A DNA stretch of 64,000 nucleotides from Hadesarchaea archaeon (GTDB taxonomy: Archaea; Hadarchaeota; Hadarchaeia; Hadarchaeales; Hadarchaeaceae). Position 1 is the stretch's first letter. Each line of letters begins with the position of its first letter. Shown here one piece after another: positions 13,943-60,749 of this stretch. Where the stretch lies: assembly GCA_004375695.1 (NCBI GenBank), contig SOKQ01000014.1, forward strand, positions 2,067 to 66,066, written 5' to 3'. Below the pieces are notes generated by a model that worked only from the letters and a program-made list of their open reading frames with translations, was not told where the DNA came from and ran no database searches. Position numbers and translations under genes: made by a program.

Positions 13943-15412
<1,470 letters not shown>

Positions 15413-42129: not shown

Positions 42130-42217
42130 GCCGGGGTAGCCTAGCCAGGTAAGGCGCAGGTTTGGAGAACCTGTGGTCCTTTGGGCCTCAGGGGTTCGAA
42201 TCCCCTCCCCGGCGCCA
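42130..42217 (+). tRNA. tRNA-Ser(GGA), class II, CCA encoded; attL of the integrated element
   Basis: Acceptor GCCGGGG/CCCCGGC, anticodon arm CAGGT-TTGGAGA-ACCTG, long variable arm, T-arm AGGGG-TTCGAAT-CCCCT. Confidence 0.9.
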
Positions 42218-42479
42218 CCTTTCGAACGGAAGGGGCGTTATTGGGAGAGTTTCCGTTTTCACCCGCGTTACGGAATTCCGTTGCACCGTTACAGTTTTCC
42301 GTAACGCTTGAGAGAACTTGGAGCAGCCATCGCCTCGACCAGTCGTTGCGCTTGAGCACCGGAACTTCGTGCTCGAACTTCAGCAGTTTGGCCCGGATGC
42401 GGTGCTTCATCACGCGGTCATAATCGGGGTTGCCGGTTCCACCTTCCGTCAAAAATTTGAGTTCGGACTTACTCAGCAT
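42141..42479 (-). pseudogene. SSV-type integrase, N-terminal partition int(N), reading into the tRNA
   Basis: ORF ends ...VRKVAPGRGFEPLRPKGPQVLQTCALPG, with the last ~25 aa encoded antisense to the tRNA-Ser 3' half. Confidence 0.75.
42159..42227 (+). repeat. att direct repeat, copy L (69 bp, anticodon loop to 10 nt past CCA)
   Basis: 68/69 identical to 44303-44371 (single t/g difference at 42188 vs 44332), counted by hand. Confidence 0.9.
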
Positions 42480-42483
42480 GGTT

Positions 42484-42630
42484 TCACTCCGCCCCCCGCT
42501 TTCCCTTTAACCGAGCGATCGCCTCTTTGAGGGCGTTCTCGGAGATTTTTGAAAGGTTTAGCCCGGCCTCTTTTGCGGCGCGCACTACTTGATTATCGAT
42601 ATACAAGGTCACTTTCCCTTTTTTGCCCAT
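42484..42630 (-). CDS. Small ribbon-helix-helix (CopG/antitoxin-like) protein, 48 aa
   Basis: Hand-translated MGKKGKVTLYIDNQVVRAAKEAGLNLSKISENALKEAIARLKGKRGAE; stop lies 4 nt upstream of the int(N) ATG. Confidence 0.5.
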   Translation of the reverse strand: MGKKGKVTLYIDNQVVRAAKEAGLNLSKISENALKEAIARLKGKRGAE

Positions 42631-42898
42631 GTCATCAGCCCCTACGGATATATACGTATAACCTTATAAACCTTGTCGTTCTCGGTAAATTAAATATTGA
42701 CTAACGTGTTTTTTTAAATTGGGATAAAAACGGAAATAGGTCTACTGTTGATTATCATCGGCGCTGCAATTGGGGCCGGCCCGAAAATCGGAATCGCCAT
42801 CCCTGGAGGGATACGTATCTCCGGCCCCATTGGCGGGATCGTTATCCTACTTGGGGCCCTAAGAATGCTTGAAATATTATGACATTCTTTTTGGATAG

Positions 42899-43174
42899 CG
42901 GGCCTCGAAACTTCATTTTCTAAAAGACTGTGAAATAGACAAAAGGAAAATAAAAGGGATTTTAACTGCCAATCATTTTTGCGAAAAAGTTCCAAAAGAA
43001 CGAGGAGACGCCTTCACCACAGATGCTGTCAAAGCAGCCGAGAAACACGGTGTGAGTCTTATAACAACCATAGATTTGTTTGAAGTTCTCGCACTTTTAG
43101 ATAAAGGAAAAATTTTGCAAAAAAACATACAAACTAAAATACTTAGTGGCGTAGGCGTTTGCATGTTGATATAG
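42899..43174 (+). pseudogene. Start-less ORF fragment, possibly the C-terminus of a nuclease-like protein
   Basis: Open frame ...GILTANHFCEKVPKERGDAFTTDAVKAAEKHGVSLITTIDLFEVLALL... without any start codon; family assignment is only a loose impression. Confidence 0.25.
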
Positions 43175-43182
43175 GGCACGTC

Positions 43183-43323
43183 TTAAGTTTTAAAATTTGA
43201 AAGCACCCGCAGGTTCGCGTTGTCGTATATCCGCTTCAATCGTTCGGGGCTGAAATCCGTGTAGTGCCGTGCTAAGACCGACCTCGGAACTCGACGGCAA
43301 AAACGCGCCAAAAACCAAGCGGA
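43183..43323 (-). pseudogene. Integrase C-terminal remnant (~45 aa)
   Basis: Hand translation: SAWFLARFCRRVPRSVLARHYTDFSPERLKRIYDNANLRVLSNFKT, preceded by an in-frame stop. Confidence 0.55.
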
Positions 43324-43501
43324 TTAGCAACGCTTTTTCTTTTTCGGATTTTTCTTCTTTCGCATCATAGATTTCACCATTGGAACATGTTCTGAGAAGA
43401 TAAAAGACTTTACCATTAGTTAGTTCATCACCTTGGCTTCACAATCTCATCGATTTTCGCGCGCCTTTACACGAGAACCTTCAACCCCGCCTTATCGTAG
43501 A
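43199..43501. repeat. ~300-bp repeat, copy 1 (integrase 3' end plus downstream remnant)
   Basis: Aligns by eye along its full length with 63685-63983, with scattered substitutions and small indels. Confidence 0.8.
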
Positions 43502-44362
43502 TCCGCTTCAACCGCTCCGAGCTGAAGTCTGTGTAGTGCCTTGCCAGCACGCTCCTCGGAACCCTTCCGCAGAAAGCATCCACGTATCGGTCGGCAACTC
43601 CCAACTCGCCCATCTCGGAGCAGAACCAATCTCTCAAGATTTGGGGCGTGATGTGAACTCCTGTTCGCTCCTTCCCTTGAACGTCTTCCGGACCGCCTTC
43701 TCCGAGAACAGTTTAGAATCCAGCGTTAGTTCCCCGCGCCCGTTGAGGTATTCTTTCAGCGCGTGCTTGGCCTCTTCGTTGAAAAATGTCGCCCATGTTC
43801 GTTTGGTCCGGCTGCCATCGCCTTTCGGCAAGACCGTGCGCCTTTCAAGGTCGATTTCCTTTAGCGCAAGGGAGATTAACTCATGCTTTCGCAACCCGGT
43901 TGTGGCATACATCAAGAAAATCGCTCTTTCTCTGGACGACTTGAGTGCGGTATAGAATTTTTGGACGTCCTCTTTTGTGGGGACTGTCTTGAGTTTGAAC
44001 GGCGTGTGGGGCAGCCTGAAACTTTCCACGACCTCGCCCATGCGCATGAAGTCCCTGAAGAACCGGCGCAATGCGATTATCAGGTTCGCCCGCGTTCGCT
44101 CGCGCTTCTCCTTAAATCCTGCGAGATAATTTCGGATGTCGACATCCGTGATCCCGCTAGGGGCTTTCTTAACTGATTTAAAGAAGCGCCTAATTTTCTG
44201 CGCGTGCCCCTTAACCGTATTCTCACGTAATTGTAGGTCAACTTCGCAGAACTGTTTAAAGGAGGCGAGCAACCCGTCCACGTCTAAGGGCGATAAGTTC
44301 TGGGTTTGGAGAACCTGTGGTCCTTTGGGCCGCAGGGGTTCGAATCCCCTCCCCGGCGCCAC
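43467..44362 (-). pseudogene. SSV-type integrase, C-terminal partition int(C), with a frameshift
   Basis: ORF 43634..44362 starts in attR (VAPGRGFEPL...). The catalytic end KERTGVHITPQILRDWFCSEMGELGVADRYVDAFCGRVPRSVLARHYTDFSSERLKRIYDKAGLKVLV is in another frame. The shift is at the G-run near 43672-43677. Confidence 0.8.
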
Positions 44363-44371
44363 CTTTCGAAC
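44303..44371 (+). repeat. att direct repeat, copy R (partial tRNA-Ser 3' half)
   Basis: 68/69 identical to 42159-42227. Confidence 0.9.
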
Positions 44372-46795: not shown

Positions 46796-46902
46796 GCGGG
46801 GGTGGCCGAGTCAGGTCAAAGGTCTAACGACCGACTAAAGGTGCCAGCTTGAGGGGCTGGTCCCGTAGGGGTTCGCGGGTTCAAATCCCGTCCCCCGCAC
46901 CA
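46796..46902 (+). tRNA. tRNA-Leu(GAG), class II, with ~19-nt insertion (intron) in the D-arm region, CCA encoded
   Basis: Acceptor GCGGGGG/CCCCCGC, anticodon arm CCAGC-TTGAGGG-GCTGG, variable arm tcccgtaggggttc, T-arm GCGGG-TTCAAAT-CCCGT. Extra tctaacgaccgactaaagg lies between GTCAAAGG and TGCCAGC. Confidence 0.7.
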
Positions 46903-46953
46903 TTTTACCAGTAAGCTATTTATGGGCCAAAATCTATCTAAATTTGGGTTTGA

Positions 46954-47475
46954 ATGGGAAAAACCGAGACGATAAAGAAAAGGGCCGTGTACGTCTACCT
47001 GCCCTCAGAGGAAACGGCCGAGCGGTGGAAGCAGCTGGCCAAGCGATCTCACGCATCTATATCGAAGTTCGTCATCGAGCGCGTTGAGGACTCGCTCCAC
47101 GGGGAAGGGGAAGAGGGATACCCAAAGCGCGCCGAGCTCATAAAGCAATTGAAGGAACTCGGGGCAACTTTGGCGGCGCGTGAGCAGGAGAACGAGATTC
47201 TGAGACGCGCTTACGAGAGGCTGGACTCCGAACTCAGGCGCTACAGGGCTCAACCATTTCTCGAGGAAGGATTTCAAGGGGTGAGGAGATACGACCGGAA
47301 ATTGGTGAACGTGTTGAGGCAGGGAAAGGTCGTCGGCAGCGATGAGATACTGGAGAGGCTAGGGATCGAGCCCAGCGAAGCCGATTTGGTCAAGGCCGTG
47401 AGCAGGCAGCTTGAGGGCCTCGAGGCATACGGATTGGTAAAAGCCACCGCGAGGGGATGGAAATGGACGGGCTGA
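46954..47475 (+). CDS. RHH-like N-terminus / coiled coil / wHTH-like C-terminus DNA-binding protein
   Basis: 173 aa; KKRAVYVYLPSEETAERWKQLAKRSHASISKFVIERV (RHH-like); overlaps the integrase start. Confidence 0.45.
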   Translation: MGKTETIKKRAVYVYLPSEETAERWKQLAKRSHASISKFVIERVEDSLHGEGEEGYPKRAELIKQLKELGATLAAREQENEILRRAYERLDSELRRYRAQPFLEEGFQGVRRYDRKLVNVLRQGKVVGSDEILERLGIEPSEADLVKAVSRQLEGLEAYGLVKATARGWKWTG

Positions 47476-48428
47476 CTTTATCCCAGTATTCTGGGCAACA
47501 TCGGGTTCCCGGCACTCAGGAGCTGATCGGGGGATTCGAACAGGACTGCACGGACCGGGGGCTCACCGGGGAGACAACGAGGCACTACGTACACGTGCTG
47601 AAGCTCTTCTCGAGATTCGTCGAGAGTCAGGGCATCTCCCCCCTCGATGTCGACAAGTACGTGCTGAGGAATTTCATTCGACACAGGCGGGCCGGGGGGG
47701 TGGAGTCGAAGACGTTGAAGAACGAGCTATCAGCCCTGTCAGCGTTCTACGGTTATCTCTGCTTCGAGGGCCTCGTGCAGACCAACCCCATCTCCCCGGT
47801 CCGAAAGCGGTTCCTAAAGGGTTACAAGGGAGGGCTGGATGACCCGCAGAGGAAGCTGATTTCGGTGGGGGAGATGGCGAAGCTCGTGAACTCCGTGCTG
47901 GATCCCAGGGATAAGGCGATAATCCTCTTGCTTGCTAAAACAGGCGTGCGGAGGGGTGAACTCATATCCATGGATGTGGACGACATAGACTGGGCCAAAC
48001 AATCGATAATCCTCAAGCCCAAGCGGAAAAGAAGCAACAGGATCGTATTTTTCGACGACGAGTGCGCGAGGGCATTAAAGCGCTGGCTGAAGGTGAGGGG
48101 TGAGCTCAAACCGAAAACCGAGGCGCTCTTCGTCGGGGCTGGATGGGTTCGGCTGAAGCGAAATGGAGTTTACTCGCTCGTATGCAAGCACGCTCAAAGG
48201 GTCGGGCTTCACGATTCCAAGTCGCCCAAGCTCGAAGATCATCTCACTCCGCACTGCTTCAGGCACTGGTTCACGACGTGGTTGCGAAAAAATGGGATGT
48301 CCCGCGAGTTCATCCAAGAACTCAGAGGGGACAGGCGGAAGGAGGCTATAGACATATACGACCACATAGACCGCGCTGAGCTGAGAAAAGCGTACTTAGC
48401 CTGCATCCCGCAGCTCGGCGTAGCTTGA
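47457..48428 (+). CDS. Tyrosine recombinase/integrase (XerC/D-like, non-partitioned)
   Basis: TGVRRGEL (Arg I), HLTPHCFRHWF (H-x-x-R), GDRRKEAIDIYDH (His/Tyr region); 323 aa. Confidence 0.85.
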   Translation: MEMDGLTLSQYSGQHRVPGTQELIGGFEQDCTDRGLTGETTRHYVHVLKLFSRFVESQGISPLDVDKYVLRNFIRHRRAGGVESKTLKNELSALSAFYGYLCFEGLVQTNPISPVRKRFLKGYKGGLDDPQRKLISVGEMAKLVNSVLDPRDKAIILLLAKTGVRRGELISMDVDDIDWAKQSIILKPKRKRSNRIVFFDDECARALKRWLKVRGELKPKTEALFVGAGWVRLKRNGVYSLVCKHAQRVGLHDSKSPKLEDHLTPHCFRHWFTTWLRKNGMSREFIQELRGDRRKEAIDIYDHIDRAELRKAYLACIPQLGVA

Positions 48429-48441
48429 TTTCTATAAAGGT

Positions 48442-49071
48442 TCAGCGGAAGGACCAAAACAATGCCGAGTCCAAGACCTTTGGATCCTCTTTTATTTTTT
48501 TCACGTCAAAGGTGATTGCAACTCGGAGTTTGCCGTCCTGGACTATTTTCTTCCTAAACTCCGGGCTCTCTGCCAGCACCTTCAAAGCTCTCCAAATGTT
48601 CTCCGAGAAACTTGCTAGGTCCTCTTTATCTGTTGGCTCAGGTGAGAGGTCAATGCAAATGTTTTCGGCTAGGCTCGTTCTAAGCCGCTCAACCCTCTCA
48701 CGTACTTTCTCATCCGCGATGTATGCGTGCTTCGAGCCGAGAAAAGCTGCGGTAAAGCCGAGTAAAAGCCTATGAGTCTTTGATTTGCTCATGAAATGAC
48801 TCACAAGACCGAGACGCCTAAGTTCCGCTTCTACCCTTTTGTTTACGGCTGCTCTTAAAGGTGACTCGGAAACTGAGCTGAGTACTTGGAGCCCCAAGAG
48901 AGTTGTTCTGTATCCTTCATCACTTTTCTCCAAGAATTTCGAGTCAACGAGTTCATTTAAATGTTTGTTCAATGTTTTATCCGTAACTGAGAGCGCACTC
49001 TTTAGCTCAATCCATCTCATTTTCTTCTTTGAGCATTCAAGAAGAATTTTCTTCTTTGGTTCGGTTAACAT
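48442..49071 (-). CDS. wHTH-domain protein with unknown C-terminal domain
   Basis: N-terminus MLTEPKKKILLECSKKKMRWIELKSALSVTDKTLNKHLNELVDSKFLEKSDEGY is wHTH-like; start moved to the second Met, consistent with an upstream TATA-like box. Confidence 0.5.
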   Translation of the reverse strand: MLTEPKKKILLECSKKKMRWIELKSALSVTDKTLNKHLNELVDSKFLEKSDEGYRTTLLGLQVLSSVSESPLRAAVNKRVEAELRRLGLVSHFMSKSKTHRLLLGFTAAFLGSKHAYIADEKVRERVERLRTSLAENICIDLSPEPTDKEDLASFSENIWRALKVLAESPEFRKKIVQDGKLRVAITFDVKKIKEDPKVLDSALFWSFR

Positions 49072-49132
49072 AGCAGGGCACCCCATGCAAAGTATTTATG
49101 GGCTACGGTATAAAAAAGTACTGGTGCTGTGC
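49072..49132. promoter_or_regulatory. Divergent promoter region with two TATA-like boxes
   Basis: cataaata on the minus strand (49093-49100) and tataaaaaag on the plus strand (49109-49118), between the divergent genes. Confidence 0.3.
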
Positions 49133-49438
49133 ATGGTATACCCTGCCCTGCCAAGAAAAAGCGTTAAAAACCACGGTGTTCAAGGCCTGGGAAAATGGGA
49201 GGAGGCGGTCGGGAAGATCTCGGCCGTCGATGAGAGTTGCGGCTTGCTCACCGTTGAGTTGAACATCGGTTCTCTGACATTTCCAGCTGATAGTCTTGAG
49301 GCGAATACTATCCGTACACGTCTGAAAAACGCTGCAGGGGACACCGTGGCCATTTTGCGTACAGATCTGGCTAGCCAGCCCATTGCCGTAAGAATCCTCG
49401 AAAAGAACAAGGTGAATTCGGGTGGCGGGGGTGATTAA
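49133..49438 (+). CDS. Small hypothetical protein (~101 aa)
   Basis: Non-overlapping part of ORF 48839..49438; stop lies 1 nt before the ATG of the next gene. Confidence 0.35.
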   Translation: MVYPALPRKSVKNHGVQGLGKWEEAVGKISAVDESCGLLTVELNIGSLTFPADSLEANTIRTRLKNAAGDTVAILRTDLASQPIAVRILEKNKVNSGGGGD

Positions 49439-49439
49439 G

Positions 49440-50408
49440 ATGGAATGGTGGATTCCGTTAATCGCCGCAGTTACTTGGACGCTTCTCCTTTTGCGCGATG
49501 TCCAGAGAAGGCCCCTCACCGGCTGGGGTGATCTACTTACCGAGCTATTAGGCGCATGGGTGGGCTCATTCTCGCTCTACATCGGGGCCCATCTCATCAC
49601 GACGAAGGTGATCGCGCCGCTTATCAAGACATGGGTCGTGCCATCGCTCCAAGTAGTGCTGGGAGTTGAGTTGGGGTGGTTTGCTCTCTTTTTTACCATT
49701 TTTTCACTCCTATGGCGAAAACTTGGCAAGACTACAGAAGAGAAAATGGATGCCGAGTGCAGAGCGGTTGCAAAACTTTGGAAGAATGCGGAGGAATATA
49801 TAGGGAGGATGTGGGAGTGTCTGGAGGAACTAAAAAAGAAGACCAACCGTCAAAAAAATGAGCAGAGAACCGGACACCAAGAGATCCTACAGCTTTTTAG
49901 AGAACTTAATAATCGTTTACAGAACCTTGCGGATCAAATTGCTGAGCTACCAAAAAAAGCGTCGATCGTAGGGGAGAGGGTGAGGGTCGAGGGGTTGGAG
50001 TGTCAGGGGTGGTCCGCCCAGCTATTCAGGAACTTCGGGTTCGATGTGGAGAACAAGGAGGGGCTCGGGGAACCCGACCACATCCTTCGCTTAGGCGGGA
50101 GGATAAAGTGCGTCGTGGCCGCAAAGAATTGGCGAATAACTAACCAGAACTGGACGGTGAACGAGGAAAGGATACGCCCGGAGTTGAAGCTGGCGAGAAC
50201 GCGCAAAGTTCCTCTAGTTGTCCACGTCCGGAACAAGGAGAACAACAGGAACTTCTTCCACATCTTCCGCGCGGATGGGCTGACCGAGGAGTGCAAGGTG
50301 ACCACTCCAGATTGGCTCAGGAGGGGGGATCTCTCGGAGGGCGACAGGCAAAAGATGATGGAGAATTATAGGCGGTTCCACCGCTTTGTGGATGAAATTA
50401 CTCGGTAG
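49440..50408 (+). CDS. Membrane-anchored coiled-coil protein with C-terminal Hjc/PD-(D/E)xK-like nuclease fold
   Basis: 3 predicted TM helices (MEWWIPLIAAVTWTLLLL..), heptad-like region (EELKKKTNRQKNEQ..LQNLADQIAEL). C-terminal GERVRVEGLECQGWSAQLFRNFGFDV..GEPDHILRLGGRIKCVVAAKNW resembles the Hjc E..PD..ExK layout, but with AAK. Confidence 0.5.
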   Translation: MEWWIPLIAAVTWTLLLLRDVQRRPLTGWGDLLTELLGAWVGSFSLYIGAHLITTKVIAPLIKTWVVPSLQVVLGVELGWFALFFTIFSLLWRKLGKTTEEKMDAECRAVAKLWKNAEEYIGRMWECLEELKKKTNRQKNEQRTGHQEILQLFRELNNRLQNLADQIAELPKKASIVGERVRVEGLECQGWSAQLFRNFGFDVENKEGLGEPDHILRLGGRIKCVVAAKNWRITNQNWTVNEERIRPELKLARTRKVPLVVHVRNKENNRNFFHIFRADGLTEECKVTTPDWLRRGDLSEGDRQKMMENYRRFHRFVDEITR

Positions 50409-50940
50409 TGCGATTTTCATTACCCGCTACCCTAATAAACTCGTCTTTTGCCCATTTTCATTACTCAGTAAGACGGAACCAGAGGGCTTCTTTTCCAAAA
50501 TAGAAGGGCATATCTTGCTATTCAGTAGTTCGGACAGCATTACTGAACGTGCTACCGATTATTTTTCGGCCCCATCACCCTATATAGTAGATCTCTATGT
50601 ATGTCAATTTTCCACTGTATTTTCATGGCTCGTTTTTTGCCCGCTCGCATACGCCTCGGAATTTTTCCAATTTTCATTTGAAGAAAAATTCCTCGGCTTT
50701 GCTCGTTCGCGGTAGACTTGTTTCTCGCTCATAGTCTATCACGACTGCTCTTGCTCGTTGGACATTCGTCAGAGACAGAGACGCTGACGCTGGCGGTTAC
50801 AACGACGGTTAACTTGTGAGTGTTTTCATTCTTTTTTGTTATCTGCGCGCGGCTTTCTTTACGCGCGCGTCCCCGCCTAGCTTTTTGGGCGAGGTTTAAC
50901 TTCAGGTGCAAGCGGCGGTGTCGACCGAAGCACTGGCGCC

Positions 50941-51334
50941 ACAACTCCCCTCCCCGTCTTTTTTCTGCTCTGAAGGGGAGGGACGGGAAGAGAAGAGGGA
51001 ACGGGTCATGTCCCGTCCGGCGAGAAGGGAACCGCCAAGCCCACGCCGCGCTTCGGGAACGCCACGCTTCGGGAACGGGAAGGGAAAAGGGACGGCCCCC
51101 ACGCTCGCCTCCCGTCCCTTCACCACCCGTCCAGCGGCGAGGGGTCCGGGACGGGAAGGGACGAGGGAACGGGCAGTTTCTCGGGCGAGGTGCTCACCGT
51201 CTCCCCTCGCTTCCCCGCAGTTGTTTTTTCGCGCGTTTTTTTCGGGAGACAAAAGGGACGTGTCGGGAGACGGGAGGAGGGAGAGCGAAGGGAAGAGGGA
51301 CCGGGGAACCTCTAAGCAGCATTGGTCATTCGTC
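50941..51334 (+). repeat. G-rich/C-rich block repeat region A
   Basis: Alternating C-rich (ctcccctccccgtc, cctcccgtcccttcaccacccgtcc) and GGGA-rich blocks. Shares a 70-nt unit (51233-51302, 67/70 identical to 61144-61213) and an exact 20-mer (51314-51333 = 61094-61113) with region B. Confidence 0.8.
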
Positions 51335-51437
51335 GGGACTCAGGCTGGCGGACCTCAAGGAAGAGGATGAGGGTTAAATTTAGTAAGTTTACCTAGCAGT
51401 TCTAAACAGGCTGTTGTAAAAATGTGGAGAGGCAAAA

Positions 51438-51809
51438 ATGGCTTCGAGCAAAGAAGTTGAAAGGAAAGCGATTAAACTGGTAATGAAAAAGTTGCACATT
51501 GTGGATATTCCGCCTTACAAACAGGCCCCAGCCGACATACATGAAAAGGAAAATCAGAAGAAAAGAGCTGAAGCTTTGAAAACTGAAGCAGAAAAGCTAT
51601 TCGAAAATCAGATGAGGGGAAAAGTACACCTAAAAGTTGAATATCACAGGCATAAAGGGAGGTCTGACGCAGCCAACATAATCGGCGGTATAGCTGATGC
51701 TTTGAACAAAATAGCGTATGTTGATGATAAGCAAATAGTAGAAATCCATTACCATGAAGCATTAGGGAAAGTTGACGAGTACTGGGTAGAGATAGAGGAA
51801 GTAATATAG
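51438..51809 (+). CDS. RusA-like Holliday junction resolvase
   Basis: GRSDAANIIGGIADALNKIAYVDDKQIV matches the RusA pattern D-x-D/A-N-x6-DAL-x6-DD-x-Q-V; 123 aa. Confidence 0.55.
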   Translation: MASSKEVERKAIKLVMKKLHIVDIPPYKQAPADIHEKENQKKRAEALKTEAEKLFENQMRGKVHLKVEYHRHKGRSDAANIIGGIADALNKIAYVDDKQIVEIHYHEALGKVDEYWVEIEEVI

Positions 51810-51844
51810 GACTATGTTTCTGATCGATAAAAGAGGATAATAGA

Positions 51845-51994
51845 ATGGAGCATGGAAAATACACAAAGAAGCTGGGTGAAAACCTTATTGGAGTCTTGAA
51901 GGAAAGTCTTGGGGTTAAAGTTTTTCACGATCACGGGGGAAAAGATGCCCTCACCAAACTCGTGCGCCGCGCGTTCGATCCAAAGCAGGCCTGA
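51845..51994 (+). CDS. Small hypothetical protein (49 aa)
   Basis: ATG..TGA ORF (MEHGKYTKKLGENLIGVLKESLGVKVFHDHGGKDALTKLVRRAFDPKQA) on the same strand as its neighbours; competes with antisense ORF 51812..52132. Confidence 0.2.
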   Translation: MEHGKYTKKLGENLIGVLKESLGVKVFHDHGGKDALTKLVRRAFDPKQA

Positions 51995-52029
51995 ATATTT
52001 GGAATCCCATATTATTTCGGGGATAGAAA

Positions 52030-52314
52030 ATGGTGATTTGTAAATTCGTTGTGGGTGAGAAAGAAAAGCATGAGGTCGAGGTGGACACGGGCCGAAGTTG
52101 GTTTTTTCAAACACGCCCTTTCGCCATAACAATAGACGGGAAAGCTGTGGTTAAAAAACTCAAGTGGGTCAAGTTGACTGATAAATATCGTGCCACAATC
52201 GGAAACAAGGAAAAACACGAACTCGAAATAACAGTTAGATATCCTTCATTGGCATGGCGCGGCCCGGTTGTAGAAGCGTTTGTTGATGGGAAACTGCATT
52301 TTAAGAATGTTTAG
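52030..52314 (+). CDS. Hypothetical protein (94 aa, beta-rich appearance)
   Basis: ORF with internal repeat-like GEKEKHEVEVD / GNKEKHELEIT. Confidence 0.4.
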   Translation: MVICKFVVGEKEKHEVEVDTGRSWFFQTRPFAITIDGKAVVKKLKWVKLTDKYRATIGNKEKHELEITVRYPSLAWRGPVVEAFVDGKLHFKNV

Positions 52315-52375
52315 TTTACTCACCCGCCCAAGTTTTGTGCTGCAAAACTGGCTCCAGGGGCTCGCCCGGGGCATC

Positions 52376-52467
52376 GCCGTTTCCCCCCGAGCCGTTTCGC
52401 GCGCTATGGGACGGGACGGGTGGAGTGAATGAAGGGAAGAGGGAAAAGGGAAATTCATCATTTGGCA
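52376..52467 (+). repeat. G-rich repeat region C (R1 unit)
   Basis: gccgtttcc..ccgtttcgcgcgctatgggacgggacgggtggagtgaatgaagggaagagggaaaagggaaattcatcatttggca aligns with 60795-60884 with few differences. Confidence 0.8.
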
Positions 52468-52649
52468 AGCAACCTAATCCATAGACCCTCAAGAAGTTTC
52501 AAGTTTAAGCTGGCGTCAATTTGTTCATTTAAGATTTTTTTGTAAGCTTCAATATGTTTATTTTTGTAAGGTAGGACAGGCGGCAACCTTTGTAGCCTAC
52601 TTTGCAGTTCACTAACATGTTCTAAGGTTGCTTTGTTTTTATTTAAACT
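52458..52649 (-). pseudogene. Start-less 63-codon ORF in frame with and downstream of the HEPN gene
   Basis: SLNKNKATLEHVSELQSRLQRLPPVLPYKNKHIEAYKKILNEQIDASLNLKLLEGLWIRLLAK; no ATG/GTG/TTG near its 5' end; a related remnant lies at 60875-60955. Confidence 0.3.
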
Positions 52650-52673
52650 TTAAGCGCCCTACCCCACGTACAG

Positions 52674-53519
52674 TTACTTGCCAGTAAAAATACGATCCAA
52701 TTCGGCGATTTTCGGCTTTAGCCTTGGCTGCTCCCGAGGATAATAGTACCCGCTGTCTGTAAGGCCAAAATATTTCCTTTGAATCAAGTCGTGCAACTCG
52801 TGCAACAATTCATTATGAGAGCAACTATATGAAATATACTCCTCGTGCGTCAAAAGAACCGGTACTTTCTGTTCAGGATTTTTGCGAAATTTCAAATACT
52901 GTGGATGAAGTTTTATATTTCCATTAATTGGTATCGCTTGTTTTTCATAGGATTCGTGAAAGAGCCCGCGGTGATGCATGAAAAGATTTCGCAATCTTCT
53001 AGCCTCGTCGACATCAAGACATACCTCCGGCAATCTGTTTATCGCTTCCTTATAGCCCCCACTGTAGATGGATTCTTTATTAGGGATAACAAAATCAAAA
53101 GCCCTTTCCAAAAGAGTTTTGTATCCGCCGAGTTCTGGGTTTATACCTTTAAATATCGAATCATGTTCATTTTCGTTCAAATGTGCCGCAAATGATCGTA
53201 GCGCAACTTCGAATATGGCAACCAACACTATTAGAGAAGAACGTGTATGGTAGAATTGAAATTTTTCATCCATTTGTTTAACGAGAATTTTCGGAGAATA
53301 TGTTATAACCCAACCGCGGGTAAAAGGAAGAACTTTTTCAGGAAGTCTTGAGATTTTATCTTCAGGAGATGCACTTTGAACAGATGCATTAACATATTGA
53401 AAATAACCAAGAACATCTTTCATCAAATAATCAGCAAATTCAAACTCGTCAAGTATTTTAATATCCCGACCCAAATTGTCTCTTTCCGCCTTGTGTTCCT
53501 CGCTCTTTTCGCCAGTCAT
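52674..53519 (-). CDS. HEPN-domain protein (Abi-like predicted RNase)
   Basis: 281 aa; Rx4H motif in EARRLRNLFMHHRG; helical C-terminal half. Confidence 0.55.
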   Translation of the reverse strand: MTGEKSEEHKAERDNLGRDIKILDEFEFADYLMKDVLGYFQYVNASVQSASPEDKISRLPEKVLPFTRGWVITYSPKILVKQMDEKFQFYHTRSSLIVLVAIFEVALRSFAAHLNENEHDSIFKGINPELGGYKTLLERAFDFVIPNKESIYSGGYKEAINRLPEVCLDVDEARRLRNLFMHHRGLFHESYEKQAIPINGNIKLHPQYLKFRKNPEQKVPVLLTHEEYISYSCSHNELLHELHDLIQRKYFGLTDSGYYYPREQPRLKPKIAELDRIFTGK

Positions 53520-53647
53520 TCTCCCGCCACCACTACCCGGTCTTTATTCTCTTGCTTGTGTTTATGAAAGTATGTTCTAAACCGCGTCACAGACGTGAAT
53601 CAAGCGCCCGCGCCCGACTTTCTACTGCAGATTGGAAAGTAAATTGT

Positions 53648-53917
53648 CTATGCTGGCTTTAAATATGCCAAATACTTCTTTTCCCCATCGAGGAGCATAC
53701 ACTTGCCATCTGGAGTGGGCTCGCCACCGAGTTTCATGCAAGTTACGCGGTCCACCCTAGTCACCTCACGATCTCGCTCAGCAATACACGTGACGAAATC
53801 ACGTGCGACGTTGATGAACCCGTAGAACGGTCCGCCTGTGACCGTCCCCGCAACACCCGCGGGTGCTGCCCTCTTGGCGCACCTTACAGCCTTCTCGATT
53901 CTTTTTTTGTTTTCCAT
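53648..53917 (-). CDS. Hypothetical protein (89 aa)
   Basis: ORF only; GC-richer than its neighbours. Confidence 0.3.
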   Translation of the reverse strand: MENKKRIEKAVRCAKRAAPAGVAGTVTGGPFYGFINVARDFVTCIAERDREVTRVDRVTCMKLGGEPTPDGKCMLLDGEKKYLAYLKPA

Positions 53918-54138
53918 TTTTATCGCCGATTGAACCGGCTCATGTGCCTATTTAAGTTTTTAGTGCTGCACTAAATAGCACCAAATATCTTTATGCCCCA
54001 AATCACGACCTGCGCCCAAACTCCCTACCGCAGCGGGTTAGGTTGCCGGTCCGGGTGGTTTGGCTTTCTCGTTCTTTTGTATCCGACACCCTAATTTAAT
54101 TTGGTCATAAGCCTATTCATTTTTAGTGGTGTGGGAAA

Positions 54139-54861
54139 ATGGCAGAGGACCTAGTTACAATATTTCTGATAGGTATACTGGGTGTCGTCGTCGGTGGTAT
54201 AATCACTTTTGCGGTACAAAGAAACCTTCAAGAACGAGAGTGGAGAAAGAAGAGAGCAGAAGAAATTTACGCGCCTCTTTTAGATCAGTTAAGCGACATT
54301 GAAGCAAATCTTTATAAATTGACAAAGGACCCATCTTACCCTGAATGGAGCAGGATGAGAGAAAAACATTTAGTGCATTTTATTGAACCAAAACTTAAAG
54401 ACAGACTTTTGACCCTCTTCATAGAGTTACATAATTTCAATATTTACCTCAGAGTAGCGATAAATAGGATAAAAGAACCAATGAAAAAAGAGATTTTACA
54501 AAGATTAAAAGAAGAGCATAAGGATGAGGTTCAAAGAAGCACACCTTTCTTAGATGAAGCGTTTTTTTGGGACGGGTTTGCTAAACTCGTTCTTAAAAAA
54601 GAGGACAGTGGAGGATTTTTTGGGTTTATACATGATGCGCCTTTGCTGGAAAAAGAGTATGGTGAATTAGAAAAACATTTTGAAACGAGATATCCTTTCG
54701 ACGATTTTATAAAGGATTTTGCTTCAAAAATTAAGGATGATCCCTTTTTTAGGGATGGGGATTTTAAAAGGGAGTTACGGGATCTCGTTGCCAAAACTCA
54801 AGAATTGAAAGGCGAGGTAGAGAAAAAATTGGGAATTTTCAAAAAAGAGGAGTGGGACTAA
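54139..54861 (+). CDS. Hypothetical N-terminally membrane-anchored helical protein
   Basis: TM helix LVTIFLIGILGVVVGGIITFAV followed by a charged helical region; 240 aa; AT-rich. Confidence 0.45.
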   Translation: MAEDLVTIFLIGILGVVVGGIITFAVQRNLQEREWRKKRAEEIYAPLLDQLSDIEANLYKLTKDPSYPEWSRMREKHLVHFIEPKLKDRLLTLFIELHNFNIYLRVAINRIKEPMKKEILQRLKEEHKDEVQRSTPFLDEAFFWDGFAKLVLKKEDSGGFFGFIHDAPLLEKEYGELEKHFETRYPFDDFIKDFASKIKDDPFFRDGDFKRELRDLVAKTQELKGEVEKKLGIFKKEEWD

Positions 54862-54862
54862 T

Positions 54863-55369
54863 TTAACTGCTTAAAACAAGCGCCCAAGGTAATATTGGGT
54901 TCGGGATTGCTCTATTCTCAAAGAAAAAATGTGCATTAATCGGGTCACGGGGGTGTAATCTTTCCCTAATTTCGGCGTTCGGGCCTGGGTGATCGGGAAA
55001 CAGGACGATCCCGACCGATGACTCATCCGTCTCATGGGCACTCCACCCCACGCTGGTCGGCCGTTCCAAGCGCCACATACCACCGCGCTTTCGGGCGATC
55101 ACAGGCGCGGCACATTTCACCTCGACGAAAGTGGGAGGGGATCCGCGGCTTCCTAATAGCGCCACCCTACCCTAACCCCTAGCATAGCCCACTAGTGAAG
55201 TTTTGGGACTCCCAGTTTTTTCCTGCTCGTCGGAACCCACTTTAGACTTCGAACCCCACATACCCGGGGCGAGCAATTCACCGACGCGCGTTGGAATATG
55301 CGCAGAGGATAACAAGAAAACAAGCATATGTACTCTCAGCAAGGCAATCAAAAGTATATGCCACACCAA
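54863..55369 (-). pseudogene. Hypothetical ORF interrupted by one in-frame TAG
   Basis: ORFs 55172..55369 and 54863..55165 are in the same frame, separated by TAG at 55172-55174; the patch is GC-rich within AT-rich surroundings. Confidence 0.3.
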
Positions 55370-55654
55370 CCATCTCCAAAATCGAGAACCCTCATGGCCC
55401 GAGTTTTGGATGGTTCATGCCAAACGTGTAAGATTTTTTCAGTATGTTTAAGTGTCTTACCTAAACAAGAGATCGGGTTTCTGATTATATGTACGCATGG
55501 TCTCTTTAGAGGAAGAATATTTGCTCTTGGAACAAAATATAGCCAGTAGTTTTTGCTGAATCCCCCGGGAAATTGAACGTATAACCAAAATGTTTAAGGT
55601 AGACTTGAACAAATAAAAAATTGACTGGGGGCTAGAAATTAGAGGTCGAGAAGT

Positions 55655-56254
55655 ATGTGTAAATCTCTCCTGTCCAGTATCCATGATAAGTTCTACTCCT
55701 TGAAATTGCCTAGTGAACCATCTAAAAATCTTGTTGAGAATTTGAGCGATAAGCAAAAGCAACTCTTGAGTAAATCTATCATGCGACTTGCTTTTATCAA
55801 GAGCTTAAATGCAGATGAAAAACTTGTTGAGTATACCAATGCAATTCGCGTTTCACTGTTCACGCCGATATGTGAGAAATGGGAGCCATCAAAGAAAGAT
55901 ATTGAAAACAAAGTTAGGGATTTCTTTAGATTGGTTGATAAAAAAATAGTGCGAGAGCTGGACAGTTCTTTTAAAGTGTATAACGGTGAATCTAAAGATT
56001 TCGTTTGGGTACTTACCCACACTAGGCACAATACGATTCACCTAGACACCAACACTATACTCCCAGAAGCTGATGGAGCAGTTTCCTTAAAACATGGAGA
56101 AAAGCCCCCAACCATGATGACGGGGTTCAGAGTATACGTTAGGAAGGAGGATAGGAATTATTCTATCACCTTCCATAAATCGACAGATAAGGTTATTGAT
56201 TTGTTAATCAAATCTTTTGCTTCTTACCTAACCAATAAATTTTCTTCACACTAA
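55655..56254 (+). CDS. Hypothetical protein (199 aa)
   Basis: AT-rich ORF; no recognisable motif. Confidence 0.4.
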   Translation: MCKSLLSSIHDKFYSLKLPSEPSKNLVENLSDKQKQLLSKSIMRLAFIKSLNADEKLVEYTNAIRVSLFTPICEKWEPSKKDIENKVRDFFRLVDKKIVRELDSSFKVYNGESKDFVWVLTHTRHNTIHLDTNTILPEADGAVSLKHGEKPPTMMTGFRVYVRKEDRNYSITFHKSTDKVIDLLIKSFASYLTNKFSSH

Positions 56255-56341
56255 ACTACAAACCTCACTATTACCCGACTTTTTCACAATCTCAGCCCCC
56301 TAGGTGCGTTCAAGCCCGTTTCGGGGCCTGAAAACGAGTCA

Positions 56342-56668
56342 TCAGTCCACGCCGTATCTTTCCAAACGTTTTTTAATTTCGAGAACTTCACCTATTTGTG
56401 ATGCCTTATACCTATGCAAGTCTCCATTAAAAGCGGAGAGAATCCCCCCCGCCATACCTACTGTCGCAATGATTCGGAGTATATTATAGGCTGGATTTGC
56501 TATAATTGCTATAAAAGTCACGGCAAAAATTGAGAAGAACACCGCGGACCAAGATATTGAAACGTAACATCTGCTTTTCTCAATACGATATTCAGCCAAC
56601 AAAAACTGAATGTCCTCTTTACGCAACTTTTGTTTTGGTTTCCAACGGGTTCGTCGACATAACTTCAT
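56342..56668 (-). CDS. Small 2-TM membrane protein coupled to the voltage-sensor protein
   Basis: Basic N-terminus, TM1 VSISWSAVFFSIFAVTFIAIIA, TM2 ILRIIATVGMAGGILSAF; ATG overlaps the upstream stop (ATGA). Confidence 0.5.
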   Translation of the reverse strand: MKLCRRTRWKPKQKLRKEDIQFLLAEYRIEKSRCYVSISWSAVFFSIFAVTFIAIIANPAYNILRIIATVGMAGGILSAFNGDLHRYKASQIGEVLEIKKRLERYGVD

Positions 56669-57144
56669 GCGCGATCCCTCCTCTCGCCCCTTCGTCGTCG
56701 GAATTTCTTCACCGTCTTCCTCAGCTTTGGCATCTTCCGTGCTAGCTTAAGTGCTTTCGCCGCTTTGGTGACCTTCGCTGCCTTTGTAACCTTTACAACT
56801 CTCGTCACTTTCGCAACCCTAGCAACTCTCGCAATTCTGGCAACCCTCGCTACCCTGAACAGCCTAAACGCGCGGATTATGCTCATCTCCATTACAAGGG
56901 CTGGAATCGAACCCAAGATGTCTGCCCAGCTATCGCGTAGGCAGCCCCTTTTGGATGGCGCCTTATGGAACCTGAGACCGAACTCGGTTATGAAGATCGC
57001 GCATACCCCAAGGTCAATCCATCCAAAAAGCCCCTCTTGTTCGGGGGTCGGCTCGAAAACGAGCGACACGACAAGTAAGCTCAGCGCGAAAATCGCCAGC
57101 CCAGCCATCGCAATATCGGTACCTCCTAACTTTTCTTGTCCCAT
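56665..57144 (-). CDS. Stand-alone voltage-sensor domain (S1-S4) protein, no pore domain
   Basis: S2-like WIDLGVCAIFITEFGLRF, S3-like SWADILGSIPALV, S4 RAFRLFRVARVARIARVARVAKVTRVVKV... with R/K at every third residue; ORF ends in a basic tail. Confidence 0.65.
   Translation of the reverse strand: MGQEKLGGTDIAMAGLAIFALSLLVVSLVFEPTPEQEGLFGWIDLGVCAIFITEFGLRFHKAPSKRGCLRDSWADILGSIPALVMEMSIIRAFRLFRVARVARIARVARVAKVTRVVKVTKAAKVTKAAKALKLARKMPKLRKTVKKFRRRRGERRDRA
56740..56874 (-). repeat. Degenerate 9-nt (3-codon) periodic tract encoding the extended S4 helix
   Basis: About 15 consecutive units of ARR-GTN-GCN type (agg gta gcg / agg gtt gcc / aga att gcg ...). Confidence 0.7.
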
Positions 57145-57326
57145 GGTTCCCCAGGATTGATTTAGCTAAGGCACCTAAAACCAATATTCAAGAGCCAGAG
57201 GGCTTGCTCGTTCGATGGTATTCAAAAGAACCTGAATAATCCGCGATTTATGGGTCAGCGCCGCGCCCACATAAGTGTTTTTAAAAGCAGAACTTAATAT
57301 GAATTTGAAAAACGCACCGTGATGAA

Positions 57327-58526
57327 ATGAACAAATTTACTAACTTGATAATTGATCCTTCGAACCTTCGGTCGCTTTTTCACCCACAAAATAAATTTAT
57401 GATTTTTAAACGTTTAGCAGTTTACGAAAAAATTTACATAGATAAACTTTTAATGACTCAAACTGCGGAGATTGTGGGAAATAATGTTCTTAAAAATGTT
57501 TTAAAGAAACTAGAAAAGCGCAATCTAGTAAACTACATTGACACAACCCAAATTATTAGAAAAAATTCAGGTAAATATAAAGAATGGTTTGAAGATGACC
57601 TAAAATTGTTTGAAGACAATGTGCTGAATATGTGGCTTATCAGGAGGATTAAAGAAAAAAATTATGTGGTCCCCTTATTTCAAACATTGGGTGTTCAATC
57701 GTTATTATCTCATCTTAGATATGCGCAAAAGAAAAATGGGATCTTACTTATTCCTCCATGGCTGGTGGAAGAGGCCATACAACTTTCAAAGAAAATCAGC
57801 GATTTGGATACCGAAAAATTAAAAGCAGGTATTAAGCACGTGTTCGTGAGCAGTTTTCTTATTAGAGAATATGCCCCTCGCTTTCAGATTGATAAAGAAA
57901 ATATTGCAGTTTTTTTAGATGCAATCAAAAAATCGTCATATCTAAATGATTTTGTCACTCTGAAAGTAAAGGAATTCCGAGGTTATTTGCTGCGAGAAGC
58001 AGAGAGAGAAAGTATAAAAAGAACTATATCGCGCGCCGAACAAAACATGTTAGAAATAAAGAACGGTCTTCTAAGAGATTTAAAAATGGATCTAGGTTTT
58101 GATCTCGCTTCGGATGCTGTCCGCGCTTTGATTTCGAGTTCGATTCCAGGCGTAGGGGCCGCGAAAACCCTAATTACTCATGCTACTGAAAAACATAGGA
58201 TTAAAAAACAAAAACTGGAATGGATTGTTTACCTACGGATTATTAGGGCTTTTCAAACAAAAGGGGAAGAGAAACTAGGCCCGTGCGATATTTGCGCTCT
58301 TTCCATGAGTGAAATTAATAGCATGAACGAGGAAGAAGCCGAGAGCATGGTTTTCTCAGGAAGCATGTGTGAAGGTCATACCATCCTTTACTTAAACATA
58401 AGAAAACAAACTCAGGCTACTGGGAAAGATTTGCTTAGACTTATGAAAAAATATGAAAATTCAGAGGCTCACCGCTTAGGGGCCCCGCTCGGTGGAGCAT
58501 TCATCTGGAAAAAAAGAGAACACTGA
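57327..58526 (+). CDS. Hypothetical protein (399 aa), very AT-rich
   Basis: Long uninterrupted ORF in AT-rich DNA; divergent from the voltage-sensor operon; no motif recognised. Confidence 0.5.
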   Translation: MNKFTNLIIDPSNLRSLFHPQNKFMIFKRLAVYEKIYIDKLLMTQTAEIVGNNVLKNVLKKLEKRNLVNYIDTTQIIRKNSGKYKEWFEDDLKLFEDNVLNMWLIRRIKEKNYVVPLFQTLGVQSLLSHLRYAQKKNGILLIPPWLVEEAIQLSKKISDLDTEKLKAGIKHVFVSSFLIREYAPRFQIDKENIAVFLDAIKKSSYLNDFVTLKVKEFRGYLLREAERESIKRTISRAEQNMLEIKNGLLRDLKMDLGFDLASDAVRALISSSIPGVGAAKTLITHATEKHRIKKQKLEWIVYLRIIRAFQTKGEEKLGPCDICALSMSEINSMNEEEAESMVFSGSMCEGHTILYLNIRKQTQATGKDLLRLMKKYENSEAHRLGAPLGGAFIWKKREH

Positions 58527-58556
58527 ACCTTCTTTCCCCACCAGTTTTAAATATGA

Positions 58557-58700
58557 AAAGAACGATGGGGCACAAATCATTACGTCGATGCGTTCTGCGG
58601 AAGGGTGCCGAGAAGCGTGCTGGCGAGGCACTACACGGACTTCTCGTCGGAACGGTTGAAGCGGATATACGATGGTGCGGGCCTGAAGGTGCTCGAATAG
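58557..58700 (+). pseudogene. Integrase C-terminal remnant (plus strand)
   Basis: Hand translation KERWGTNHYVDAFCGRVPRSVLARHYTDFSSERLKRIYDGAGLKVLE, preceded by an in-frame TGA. Confidence 0.55.
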
Positions 58701-58931
58701 ATTTGATGGCAGGACGGGGACATAGAAACTCAAAAACAACCAAATGGACAACCGAGGAAAAATTGGCGCATGAGGCGGGTGGTACGGGGAAACCCTGAAG
58801 GCAGAGACAGCAACTGAGAAAAGCCTCCAGCAGCAGTAATTGATGCTTTGCCTCGATGGGCTGTTTCTTCATCTCATGCATGGTATTTGGTTTTGTGCGG
58901 ACAAATCAGTCCGTAATCACATTCCCCGCAA

Positions 58932-59324
58932 TTAGCGGAGGGGCATGCCGTGAATTCTTCTGACAGGATGCTCTTCACGACACTTTTTATTTCCTCCTTG
59001 GGATCCACCACTCGCGTACATGTACAAAATTATTGAGCTAGTAAATAGCAATAAGATTCGGGATTTATCCAATAAAAAGCTTAGAGAAATCGGGAGAGAG
59101 CTTAATTTTTTCCCTGGCGCTAGAAAAATCACGTTGTATTTGGACATTCTCTTGCTGAAATTAGTAACATGCCCCCTGCCAGTAATCAAGAGTACTTTTT
59201 CCGCATGGGGAGCCGGCTTGTATATTTTTTTAAGCCTTCCTCCCGAAACATCAATGTTTGGTTCTTCAACAAGTCCTGCCCCCCATAAAATTTTCAAATC
59301 TCTCCGTTTTGCAGCCCCAACCAT
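58932..59324 (-). CDS. Hypothetical protein
   Basis: ORF only; AGLVEE..GGRLKKIY is faintly wHTH-wing-like. Confidence 0.2.
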   Translation of the reverse strand: MVGAAKRRDLKILWGAGLVEEPNIDVSGGRLKKIYKPAPHAEKVLLITGRGHVTNFSKRMSKYNVIFLAPGKKLSSLPISLSFLLDKSRILLLFTSSIILYMYASGGSQGGNKKCREEHPVRRIHGMPLR

Positions 59325-59388
59325 CTCTTGTAGTGCCCCTTACCCCCATGTGGGCGCCAGAGATCGCGGGATTTTGGACCCCAATAAG

Positions 59389-59796
59389 TCAGGCCCGCCC
59401 AAACCATCCTTTCATGGCGTTGTTCTTGCCGGACATGTTAATGGCAAATAATCCTAAGATTGTTGCGAATACTAAGAGGTAACCTGCTTCTTGTGTTGCG
59501 TCTAAGATCATCAAACCACTGATGAAGGCCAATCCAACAGCAATAATACCCACGATTCCACCCACCCCATGAACTTTTTTCAAAATTGTTAACGTGTATG
59601 TAAGGGACAAGATAGACAAGGAAAATAGTAAGATTGAAATCACATATGGTGGGATACTAAGACCACCCAACGCCCCAAGGATCGTGCCATATGGGTCTAG
59701 CCCTGTCCTCAGGAATAGCCCCCCCACAAAACCCGTAAAACCTCTTCCGCCCAACAAGGCATCATTCATTAGTTTTCTCTTTTCTTCTGATGTCAT
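59389..59796 (-). CDS. Hypothetical polytopic membrane protein (135 aa)
   Basis: Gly-rich hydrophobic segments (GIVGIIAVGLAFISGLMIL, YLLVFATILGLFAI). Confidence 0.45.
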   Translation of the reverse strand: MTSEEKRKLMNDALLGGRGFTGFVGGLFLRTGLDPYGTILGALGGLSIPPYVISILLFSLSILSLTYTLTILKKVHGVGGIVGIIAVGLAFISGLMILDATQEAGYLLVFATILGLFAINMSGKNNAMKGWFGRA

Positions 59797-59965
59797 GTTT
59801 ATCCCACTAGAACCCGCGCGTCATTTTTTAAACGGGTTCCCACCCACCCATTATCTTCCACAAGCCTCCAGCCCCAAGGCTTGACCGCCAAGAACCTTTA
59901 AAACCTTACTTCCGGGCATGTCTTACGTTATTCTCGACGCTACTTTTTTGGTTTTCTAGAAGTTA

Positions 59966-60373: not shown

Positions 60374-60749
60374 GGACTTTCTTTGGTATATTACAAGGAG
60401 AATTTTTTTCCAACCCGTCCTAATTTTCAGCCCTTTCTTCCGACGAGTTCGCCAAGACGACTTCATGCACAACACAATTAATCCATTATGGGCCCCACTT
60501 CTTAAAACTGCCACGAGGTAGAAGATACGAAAGAACCTTTGATTTATCTTCCCCTCCGAGTTCCGTCGTCGAACCCCGAAAAAATTCAGAATTACTTTTT
60601 ATCTTTTTCTATTGGCGTGATTGTGATTTCTGTTGGGCTTTTACCCATGCAAATGAGCAATTTGTTAGTTTTTAACCAATTCGAAATCTTTGCTTGATTT
60701 AACTTACACAACAGTGCTTTTATCCGGAGAAACGAGGTCGAACTCGCGC

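Follow-up and report, generated by a model that had tools for sequence, protein, structure and literature searches.

A probable remnant of an integrative element at a tRNA-Ser(GGA) gene of a Hadesarchaea genome, with a self-split integrase gene of pNOB8/XerA affinity

The tRNA-Ser(GGA) locus and its split integrase gene

We examined a candidate integrative element at positions 42159-44371 of a 64,000-nt stretch of DNA (the window) from contig SOKQ01000014.1 of a Hadesarchaea metagenome-assembled genome (GCA_004375695.1; 630 kb, 66% complete), whose nearest proteins in public data carry the labels Hadesarchaea or Hadarchaeaceae. An intact tRNA-Ser(GGA) gene with encoded CCA lies there on the plus strand (42130-42217; found by ARAGORN, and by Rfam RF00005 with 59.8 bits). 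Its flanking genes, Cbf5 on the tRNA side and S13-S4-S11-RpoD on the other, agree with the placement given by an earlier reading of this DNA (here called the original prediction), and a repeat search bore out the direct repeat of 69 nt on which that reading was built. The two copies of this attachment (att) sequence, attL (42159-42227) and attR (44303-44371), are identical at 68 of 69 positions, the sole mismatch being T at 42188 versus G at 44332, and they delimit an element of 2144 bp, measured between the starts of the two att copies. The repeat ends 10 nt beyond the encoded CCA, as had been predicted, but it begins at tRNA position 30, in the anticodon stem and 2 nt ahead of the loop, rather than in the loop itself. 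attL therefore covers the 3' two-thirds of the tRNA gene plus 10 nt past it, while attR repeats only part of the tRNA and adjoins the native flank upstream of S13.

On the minus strand, the two ends of the segment carry the two parts of an integrase gene (int). The first part, int(N) (42141-42479; 112 codons, P0001), encodes a helical domain at its N terminus (MLSKSELKFL...) and, after it, the peptide specified by att; its open reading frame (ORF) runs from 42479 to 42141 into the tRNA gene, where its stop codon falls in the D-arm. The second part, int(C), leaves the partial tRNA copy in an ORF reading from 44374 to 43634 (P0002) and is itself distributed over two frames. Its 5' part in frame A (43679-44362, minus strand) has a GTG start inside attR and encodes the att peptide, a SAM-like core-binding domain, R245 and K274, as judged from translation and from Pfam matches to SAM_1, SAM_4 and PF00589; a protein of public annotation (P0126) is identical in sequence to this part. 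The 3' part in frame B (43467-43678, minus strand) holds R331, R354 and Y364 (all in the numbering of the joined protein) and the stop codon, as judged from translation, invariant columns, PF16795 and PF00589, so that the catalytic end (HITPQILRDWF...ARHYTD) lies in a separate frame, 43712 to 43467 (P0003). Given that 69 nt amount to exactly 23 codons, both halves carry the peptide VRKVAPGRGFEPLRPKGPQVLQT in the same frame; the original prediction had recognized this shared in-frame peptide, although at a length of 19 instead of 23 amino acids.

When joined in silico across att, the two halves give a protein of 385 amino acids with the att peptide at residues 87-109, which matches PF00589 (Phage_integrase; 44.5 bits), SAM_4 (31.0 bits), SAM_1 (29.5 bits) and PF16795 (Phage_integr_3; 38.7 bits), all above the cut-offs, as well as PHROG integrases. 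In a set of 802 homologues, the undivided proteins P0008 (378 amino acids) and P0010 (391 amino acids) align with it from MLSKSELKFL to the C terminus, int(N) alone being colinear with residues 1-110 of both; the end-to-end alignment that had been proposed as a check of the split gene was thus obtained. At the position of the att peptide these two proteins have other tRNA-type peptides, APGGRFELPRPDGPYALK in P0008 and RRPGRDLNPRRRLDRP in P0010, both unlike that of the window, and homologues consisting of Int(N) only occur elsewhere. The residues R245, K274, R331, R354 and Y364 are invariant in the family alignment and align to the active-site motifs of XerA and of the SSV1, pT26-2 and pNOB8 integrases, with the nucleophilic tyrosine located in Int(C). 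An AlphaFold model of P0008, with a mean predicted local distance difference test (pLDDT) score of 83.6, predicts residues 1-45 confidently as a helical N-domain and ends in a canonical two-domain recombinase. Residues 57-95 in between score below 50 in pLDDT and form a linker that extends into the peptide encoded by att, at about residues 84-103. Since the att peptide falls in a disordered linker in this model, any tRNA-derived peptide may be tolerated there.

To see the locus without the element, we compared it with related genomes, another check that had been proposed. Eight genomes of the same genus (G001, G002, G003, G006, G009, G010, G012 and G013) have a clean empty site, in which the Cbf5-tRNA side, one att copy and the S13 flank abut; its junction reads tRNA 5' part, att, then G(T/A)(T/C)TTAATA(A/G)G(A/C/T), and at occupied sites the same flanks are parted by the element. 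Given that these eight congeners hold exactly one att copy with abutting flanks, a chance origin of the repeat is excluded. Besides the window, occupied sites were found in L002 and L003 (GCA_009619155.1 and GCA_013282455.1; 3743 bp each), in G007 (1529 bp) and in L001 (GCA_030602765.1), where a contig end interrupts the site just beyond int(C).

Type I or SSV-type ("suicidal") integrases are defined by architecture (She et al. 2002; Badel et al. 2020, 2021). Here the int ORF contains att, which int(N) and int(C) share in frame, a tRNA gene serves as attB and is restored intact upon insertion, and the residues of a tyrosine recombinase are present. Sequence anatomy, empty sites and undivided homologues together show how the element was inserted. 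The free circle would have carried an operon of a small ribbon-helix-helix (RHH) gene followed by the gene of a tyrosine integrase of ∼385 amino acids. Its attP, 69 nt long and copying the 3' two-thirds of tRNA-Ser(GGA) with 10 nt more, would have lain inside the int ORF, antisense to the tRNA, and would have encoded 23 amino acids in a disordered linker between the helical domain at the N terminus and the SAM-like core-binding domain. By recombining at this site with the tRNA gene of the chromosome, the circle would then have restored an intact tRNA, leaving int(N) beside it and int(C) starting in the displaced partial tRNA copy beside S13.

Family and distribution of the integrase

To place the enzyme, we compared its family with the integrases of SSV1, pT26-2 and pNOB8 on the basis of Pfam pattern, profile comparison and fold. 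PF16795 scores only 26-39 bits in this family and 27.8 bits in pNOB8 Int, compared to 207 bits in SSV1 Int and 187 bits in pT26-2 Int, while PF00589, which matches pNOB8 Int with 40.9 bits, is absent from the SSV1 and pT26-2 proteins. Profile comparison with hhalign ranked pNOB8 Int first (probability 98.7%, E value 2.8e-16, 257 columns), ahead of pT26-2 Int (89%, 2e-6) and SSV1 Int (47%, 2e-4), which speaks against the match to SSV1-type integrases that the original prediction had expected. A sequence search of the PDB returned the XerA structures 4a8e and 5hxy first and SSV1 Int structures only marginally (E value of ∼1e-3 over no more than 41 residues); 4a8e and 5hxy were also at the top of the Foldseek results, with SSV1 Int outside the top 50 fold matches. 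Among plasmids, pNOB8-type integrases were the best tblastn matches. The tblastn search of phage records gave no fusellovirus, only APSV1 (27% identity, E value 8e-8) and bacterial phage integrases, and a scan of IMG/VR with the family alignment found neither relatives nor a link to a known virus.

Membership in the SSV/pTN3/pT26-2 group thus finds no support, PF16795 being neither the sole nor a strong domain and the nearest relatives being neither SSV1 nor pT26-2, while the SAM-like domain, PF00589 and the two-domain fold place the enzyme with XerA, XerC and pNOB8 Int. The behavior of the pNOB8 type, in which int stays intact after integration, is not seen here: the gene is split in the window and likewise in L028, L029 and G054. 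Judged by its sequence, the enzyme therefore appears to be SSV-type ("suicidal") in mechanism only and not in sequence family, and we suggest that it belongs to a separate, large, uncharacterized family of uncultivated archaea closer to the pNOB8/XerA recombinases. The "textbook SSV-type" label first given to it holds for the self-splitting mechanism, as seen from the anatomy, the empty sites and the undivided homologues, but not for the family, for which Pfam pattern, profiles and fold point to a XerA/pNOB8-like affiliation.

Self-splitting appears common in this family. A tRNA-type peptide stands at the start of 52 of the 120 best homologues, and matches occur in 18 of 66 Hadarchaeota species genomes (27%; 8 of 20 genera), where all 33 chromosomal matches start at or past the att position. 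Further homologues carry the depositor labels Bathyarchaeota and Methanobacteriota. Two other integrated elements differ in how the N-terminal part is made up: in L028 (2.5 kb) and L029 (4.5 kb, with an att repeat of 52-61 nt), the int(N) ORFs (12308-12619 and 14342-14596, respectively) join an RHH domain directly to the att peptide, so that this domain is Int(N). A CcdA-like RHH domain is also fused as the N terminus of the family integrases P0009, P0106 and P0107. In the subfamily of the window, the RHH domain has its own gene upstream, and a different helical domain makes up Int(N).

The contig that carries L028 and L031 (JASEGJ010000010.1 of GCA_030018135.1) bears the NCBI label "Candidatus Hodarchaeaceae," an Asgard name, while genome classification assigns it to the window's own Hadarchaeota family; the label is probably a Had/Hod slip in the record. 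We therefore dropped Asgard archaea as hosts of the family.

Decay, probable recombination and history of the element

In the window, the int(C) frame is broken by a deletion at 43678/43679 (minus strand). DNA alignment with L001, L014, L002 and L003 shows that AAGA is kept in L001, L014 and G007 and missing from the window, L002 and L003, where FKKGKERTG becomes FKG/KERTG. The frame break is thus real, but it is a loss of 4 nt at this site and not the 1-nt frameshift near 43672-43677 that had been proposed. G007 instead has an in-frame stop codon (SEMD* versus SEMGE) together with a divergent, N-terminally truncated int(N), and P0129 is likewise truncated. A full int(C) of 298-299 amino acids with a GTG or ATG start is kept in L001, P0131, P0135 and several more. 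No replication or structural genes remain in the element, and a search of the own genome, within an assembly that is 66% complete, found no intact integrase of the family. Because int is split, the deletion lies ahead of R331, R354 and Y364, there is no replication or structural gene and the assembly holds no intact family integrase, the element is unable to move by itself: it is immobilized and nonautonomous. With both att sites preserved, a superinfecting relative could still, at least formally, excise it in trans.

Just upstream of int(N), in the same operon, lies the RHH gene (42484-42630, minus strand; 48 amino acids), which matches Pfam CcdA with 31.5 bits and whose 5' half (42544-42630) is unlike that of sister genomes. 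A motif read by eye 32-40 nt upstream of its ATG, TTTATAAGG (42662-42670, minus strand), is a putative TATA box. A CcdA-type antitoxin was considered for this protein and rejected: the CcdA match spans the DNA-binding RHH part, there is no ccdB toxin gene beside it, the neighboring gene being int(N), and the domain is fused to integrases. Because in several family members the RHH domain itself is Int(N), we assign the gene to the integration module, with the protein as a likely integrase-associated DNA-binding partner of the integrase.

Between 42544 and 43197, as delimited by blastn break points, composition and ORFs, lie 654 bp specific to the window and without a convincing gene, with a GC content of 40-44% versus 55-60% in the flanks; for its ORFs, one of 54 amino acids and hydrophobic and one a fragment of 91 amino acids, Pfam and PHROGs gave nothing usable. 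L002 and L003 have 2256 bp of other cargo in this place (9163-11418 in L002), with ORFs for a 177-amino-acid protein with an N-terminal transmembrane segment, a 185-amino-acid protein with a weak DUF4062 match and a 200-amino-acid protein with several transmembrane segments; Pfam and PHROGs yielded nothing usable for these either. The interior had been described as a 48-amino-acid RHH gene and start-less fragments only. The RHH gene is real, but the C-terminal fragment of a second integrase is present as well.

This fragment (C'; 43183-43323, minus strand), found by repeat search and translation, comprises the last ∼46 codons and the stop codon of a second integrase gene of the family and reads ...CRRVPRSVLARHYTDFSPERLKRIYDNANLRVLS. 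It is 76% identical in nucleotides to the int(C) 3' end at 43488-43575, and the own-genome search gave 76% amino acid identity. Between it and the int(C) stop codon lies a spacer of 143 bp (43324-43466), which by alignment is conserved in all copies of a module of ∼300 bp composed of the last ∼36 nt of int, the spacer and the C' fragment. Besides the element itself, this module occurs at 63681-63987 of the window and in L002, G007 and G012. We considered tandem integration in situ followed by deletion as a sufficient origin of C' and rejected it, given that the module, spacer included, is found also at 63681-63987 and at the G012 tRNA-Leu site; for the same reason, the C' scar seems to have travelled with the element lineage.

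The copy at 63681-63987 (minus strand, ∼307 bp) is 92% identical to those of L002 and G007 and lies at the far end of a downstream island, 5 kb beyond a 41-amino-acid integrase C-terminal fragment on the opposite strand (58572-58694, plus strand; 90% amino acid identity). In G012, a fragment of the RHH gene and the int 3' end/C' module (L015, G012:C90, 823-1439; 87% identical to the window) stand just past rpoD and tRNA-Leu, while the tRNA-Ser site of this genome is empty; since both are found there, a related element probably used, or recombined into, the adjoining tRNA-Leu site.

The downstream island was observed in its own right. A second tRNA gene (46796-46899, plus strand) scores 44 bits with Rfam and was missed by ARAGORN, and synteny with all congeners ends exactly at 46902/46903. 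The island fills the remainder of the window (46903-64000, at least 17 kb) and carries an intact classical tyrosine integrase gene (47457-48428), a gene for a winged helix-turn-helix protein, RusA (51438-51809), an Eco57I/TaqI-type methylase gene (61394-62803) and many ORFans.

Several comparisons point to recombination between related elements. Identity between the window and L002 is 98% as far as 42543, within the RHH gene, and again from 43198 onward, within the C' fragment, but the stretches in between differ. The 5' half of int(C) in the window is unlike that of all other copies, while its 3' half equals that of L002 and L003 and differs from that of L001 and G007. Synonymous divergence (dS) of int(C) does not follow that of host genes, and its divergence is incongruent with theirs. 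We infer from this that int(C) and the interior are recombination mosaics, in a lineage that recombined repeatedly with related elements. Crossovers within the RHH gene and at the 3' end of int, which is extremely conserved, would have left the second int 3' fragment, a cargo unlike that of sister genomes and a mosaic int(C). The view of the element as immobilized and eroded is therefore kept as regards the split int, the deletion and the independent lesions of its relatives, while its interior is a recombination mosaic and not simply eroded.

A tandem array in G054 (L030, G054:C97, 878-4214) occupies a tRNA-Ser(TGA) gene, with att copies at 906-970, 2568-2632 and 4146-4210, two int(C) remnants and a C'-like fragment that lies 26 bp off the middle att copy. 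Arrays of this kind are a source of such deletions and chimeras. P0136 (346 amino acids, from a 45-kb contig) is an int(C) that ends in ...PDRLKRIYDNANLRVLS like the C' fragment and has a truncated att peptide; it looks as if int(C) had recombined with the C' repeat downstream of it.

Taken together, we assign a probability of about 0.92 to the reading that segment 42159-44371 is the decayed remnant of a small Hadesarchaea integrative element whose int gene was split by its own insertion and belongs to a family closer to pNOB8/XerA. Several points weigh against it: an intact helper integrase could sit in the third of the genome that the assembly does not cover; the subfamily yielded no complete free element, and IMG/VR has no relative; the undivided proteins P0008 and P0010 come from contigs of 1.3-1.4 kb, so that their episomal state is an assumption; and the ratio of nonsynonymous to synonymous divergence (dN/dS) of int(C), 0.17-0.29, is below the expectation for a long-dead pseudogene. 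This low ratio, which is derived from small counts, we read as the result of conversion from active relatives, that is, of imported sequence, rather than of selection.

The strongest competing explanation, which we nevertheless consider unlikely, holds that the 2.1-kb unit is a minimal nonautonomous element, made up of att, RHH and a split int that excision would join again, and that related elements still mobilize it in trans. Neither att copy is damaged (68 of 69 positions agree), the operon of RHH and int(N) is complete and preceded by a TATA-like motif, and the module of int 3' end, spacer and C' occurs in three genomic contexts, implying movement; moreover, the elements of the family are all small (1.5-4.5 kb), and excision in trans has been reported for SSV2 and pTN3 (PMC8371274). 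However, the 4-nt deletion would keep a re-joined int inactive, and sister genomes share both the insertion and the lesion, which fits vertical inheritance better than current mobility. The assembly also lacks an intact integrase of the family, and the unit is without a replication gene.

That int(C) was kept by selection after integration, as a helper of, or an interfering partner against, superinfecting elements, with the locus partly domesticated, seems to us still more improbable. It would account for a dN/dS of 0.17-0.29 in all pairs, for the 10 nonsynonymous versus 10 synonymous changes between two frameshifted copies (where neutrality predicts ∼15:5) and for the full int(C) of 298-299 amino acids in many relatives, and a role of Int(C) in trans-complemented excision has been raised as a possibility (PMC8371274). 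Against this, int(C) was inactivated independently at least twice (by the 4-nt deletion and by the G007 stop codon), P0129 is truncated as well, and the substitutions lie in clustered blocks with a tree incongruent with host genes, as expected if conversion from active elements imported divergence of low dN/dS; the counts are small, and the NG86 method ignores transition bias. Finally, a partial tRNA gene duplication unrelated to integration, with ORFs that only mimic a split integrase, has nothing beyond the repeat itself in its favor and is refuted by the eight clean empty sites and by the genuine tyrosine recombinase encoded in the interior, which aligns colinearly with its undivided homologues through the att peptide, the same architecture being found at other tRNAs in the family.

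Comparison with known integrases

The decayed self-split element shares several features with SSV-type systems, which include SSV1 and SSV2 (Fuselloviridae) as well as pTN3 and pT26-2 (Thermococcales). attP lies in the N-terminal quarter of int in both (codons ∼64-78 of 335 in SSV1, 87-109 of 385 here), integration targets the 3' part of a tRNA gene that runs antiparallel to int, int(N) ends up beside the tRNA with int(C) at the opposite end of the element, the catalytic tyrosine is in Int(C) within a GR....HY motif, and the history is one of mosaic recombinants. As in the pT26-2 family, the att-encoded peptide is free to vary between relatives (PMC7253208). The differences concern the domains, the partner and the site. 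A SAM-like domain and PF00589 are present here with a weak PF16795, the reverse of the SSV and pT26-2 pattern; the integrase has an RHH partner or fusion; and the hosts are uncultivated Hadarchaeota. The att sequence of 69 nt belongs to a class II tRNA with a long variable arm, while the att sites of published suicidal integrases typically measure 40-50 bp and the tRNAs of the pT26-2 set are without an extra arm (PMC8371274, PMC7253208). Tandem arrays are seen in this family (in G054) but not in the pT26-2 set (PMC7253208).

With pNOB8 Int and XerA, the enzyme shares the two-domain layout of a SAM-like and a catalytic part, and pNOB8 Int has the same Pfam pattern (PF00589 with ∼41 and PF16795 with ∼28 bits). 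By definition, however, integrases of the pNOB8 type (type II), which belong to conjugative plasmids of Sulfolobales, keep their gene intact on integration with attP outside int, in contrast to the split int found here, and the N-terminal parts are unrelated; XerA, for its part, resolves chromosome dimers. A further parallel is NitEve-E3 of Thaumarchaeota, a small cryptic integrated element whose integrase gene is split on integration (Krupovic et al. 2019, PMC6563490). Compared by description only, it resembles the present element as a small cryptic element of a non-hyperthermophilic archaeon, and its integrase has been described as SSV1-like.

In a recent review, which covers 17 archaeal recombinase families (PMC8371274), suicidal integrases are treated as Phage_integr_3-only families of single origin, known mainly from hyperthermophiles, and the combination of SAM and PF00589 is assigned to XerA, XerC and pNOB8. 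On the domain matches reported here, the family of the window seems to cross this line. The locus itself is an ordinary mobile-element relic, and its value lies in the enzyme family: int(C) halves, now annotated as "XerC" or "tyrosine recombinase," could mark integrated elements and att sites in uncultivated archaea. As a tentative generalization, which we put forward at somewhat less than even odds, self-partitioning integration may not be confined to the SSV/pTN3/pT26-2 lineage of hyperthermophiles, but may have arisen separately or persisted in a XerA/pNOB8-like family of uncultivated archaea, with RHH as or beside Int(N), tandem arrays at one tRNA and cargo shuffled at an ultraconserved int 3' end. 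If this is true, an attP inside int would be a convergent or a more ancient solution, given that the self-splitting mechanism is carried here by a family that is common in subsurface Hadarchaeota and has the domain makeup of the nonsplitting pNOB8/XerA group.

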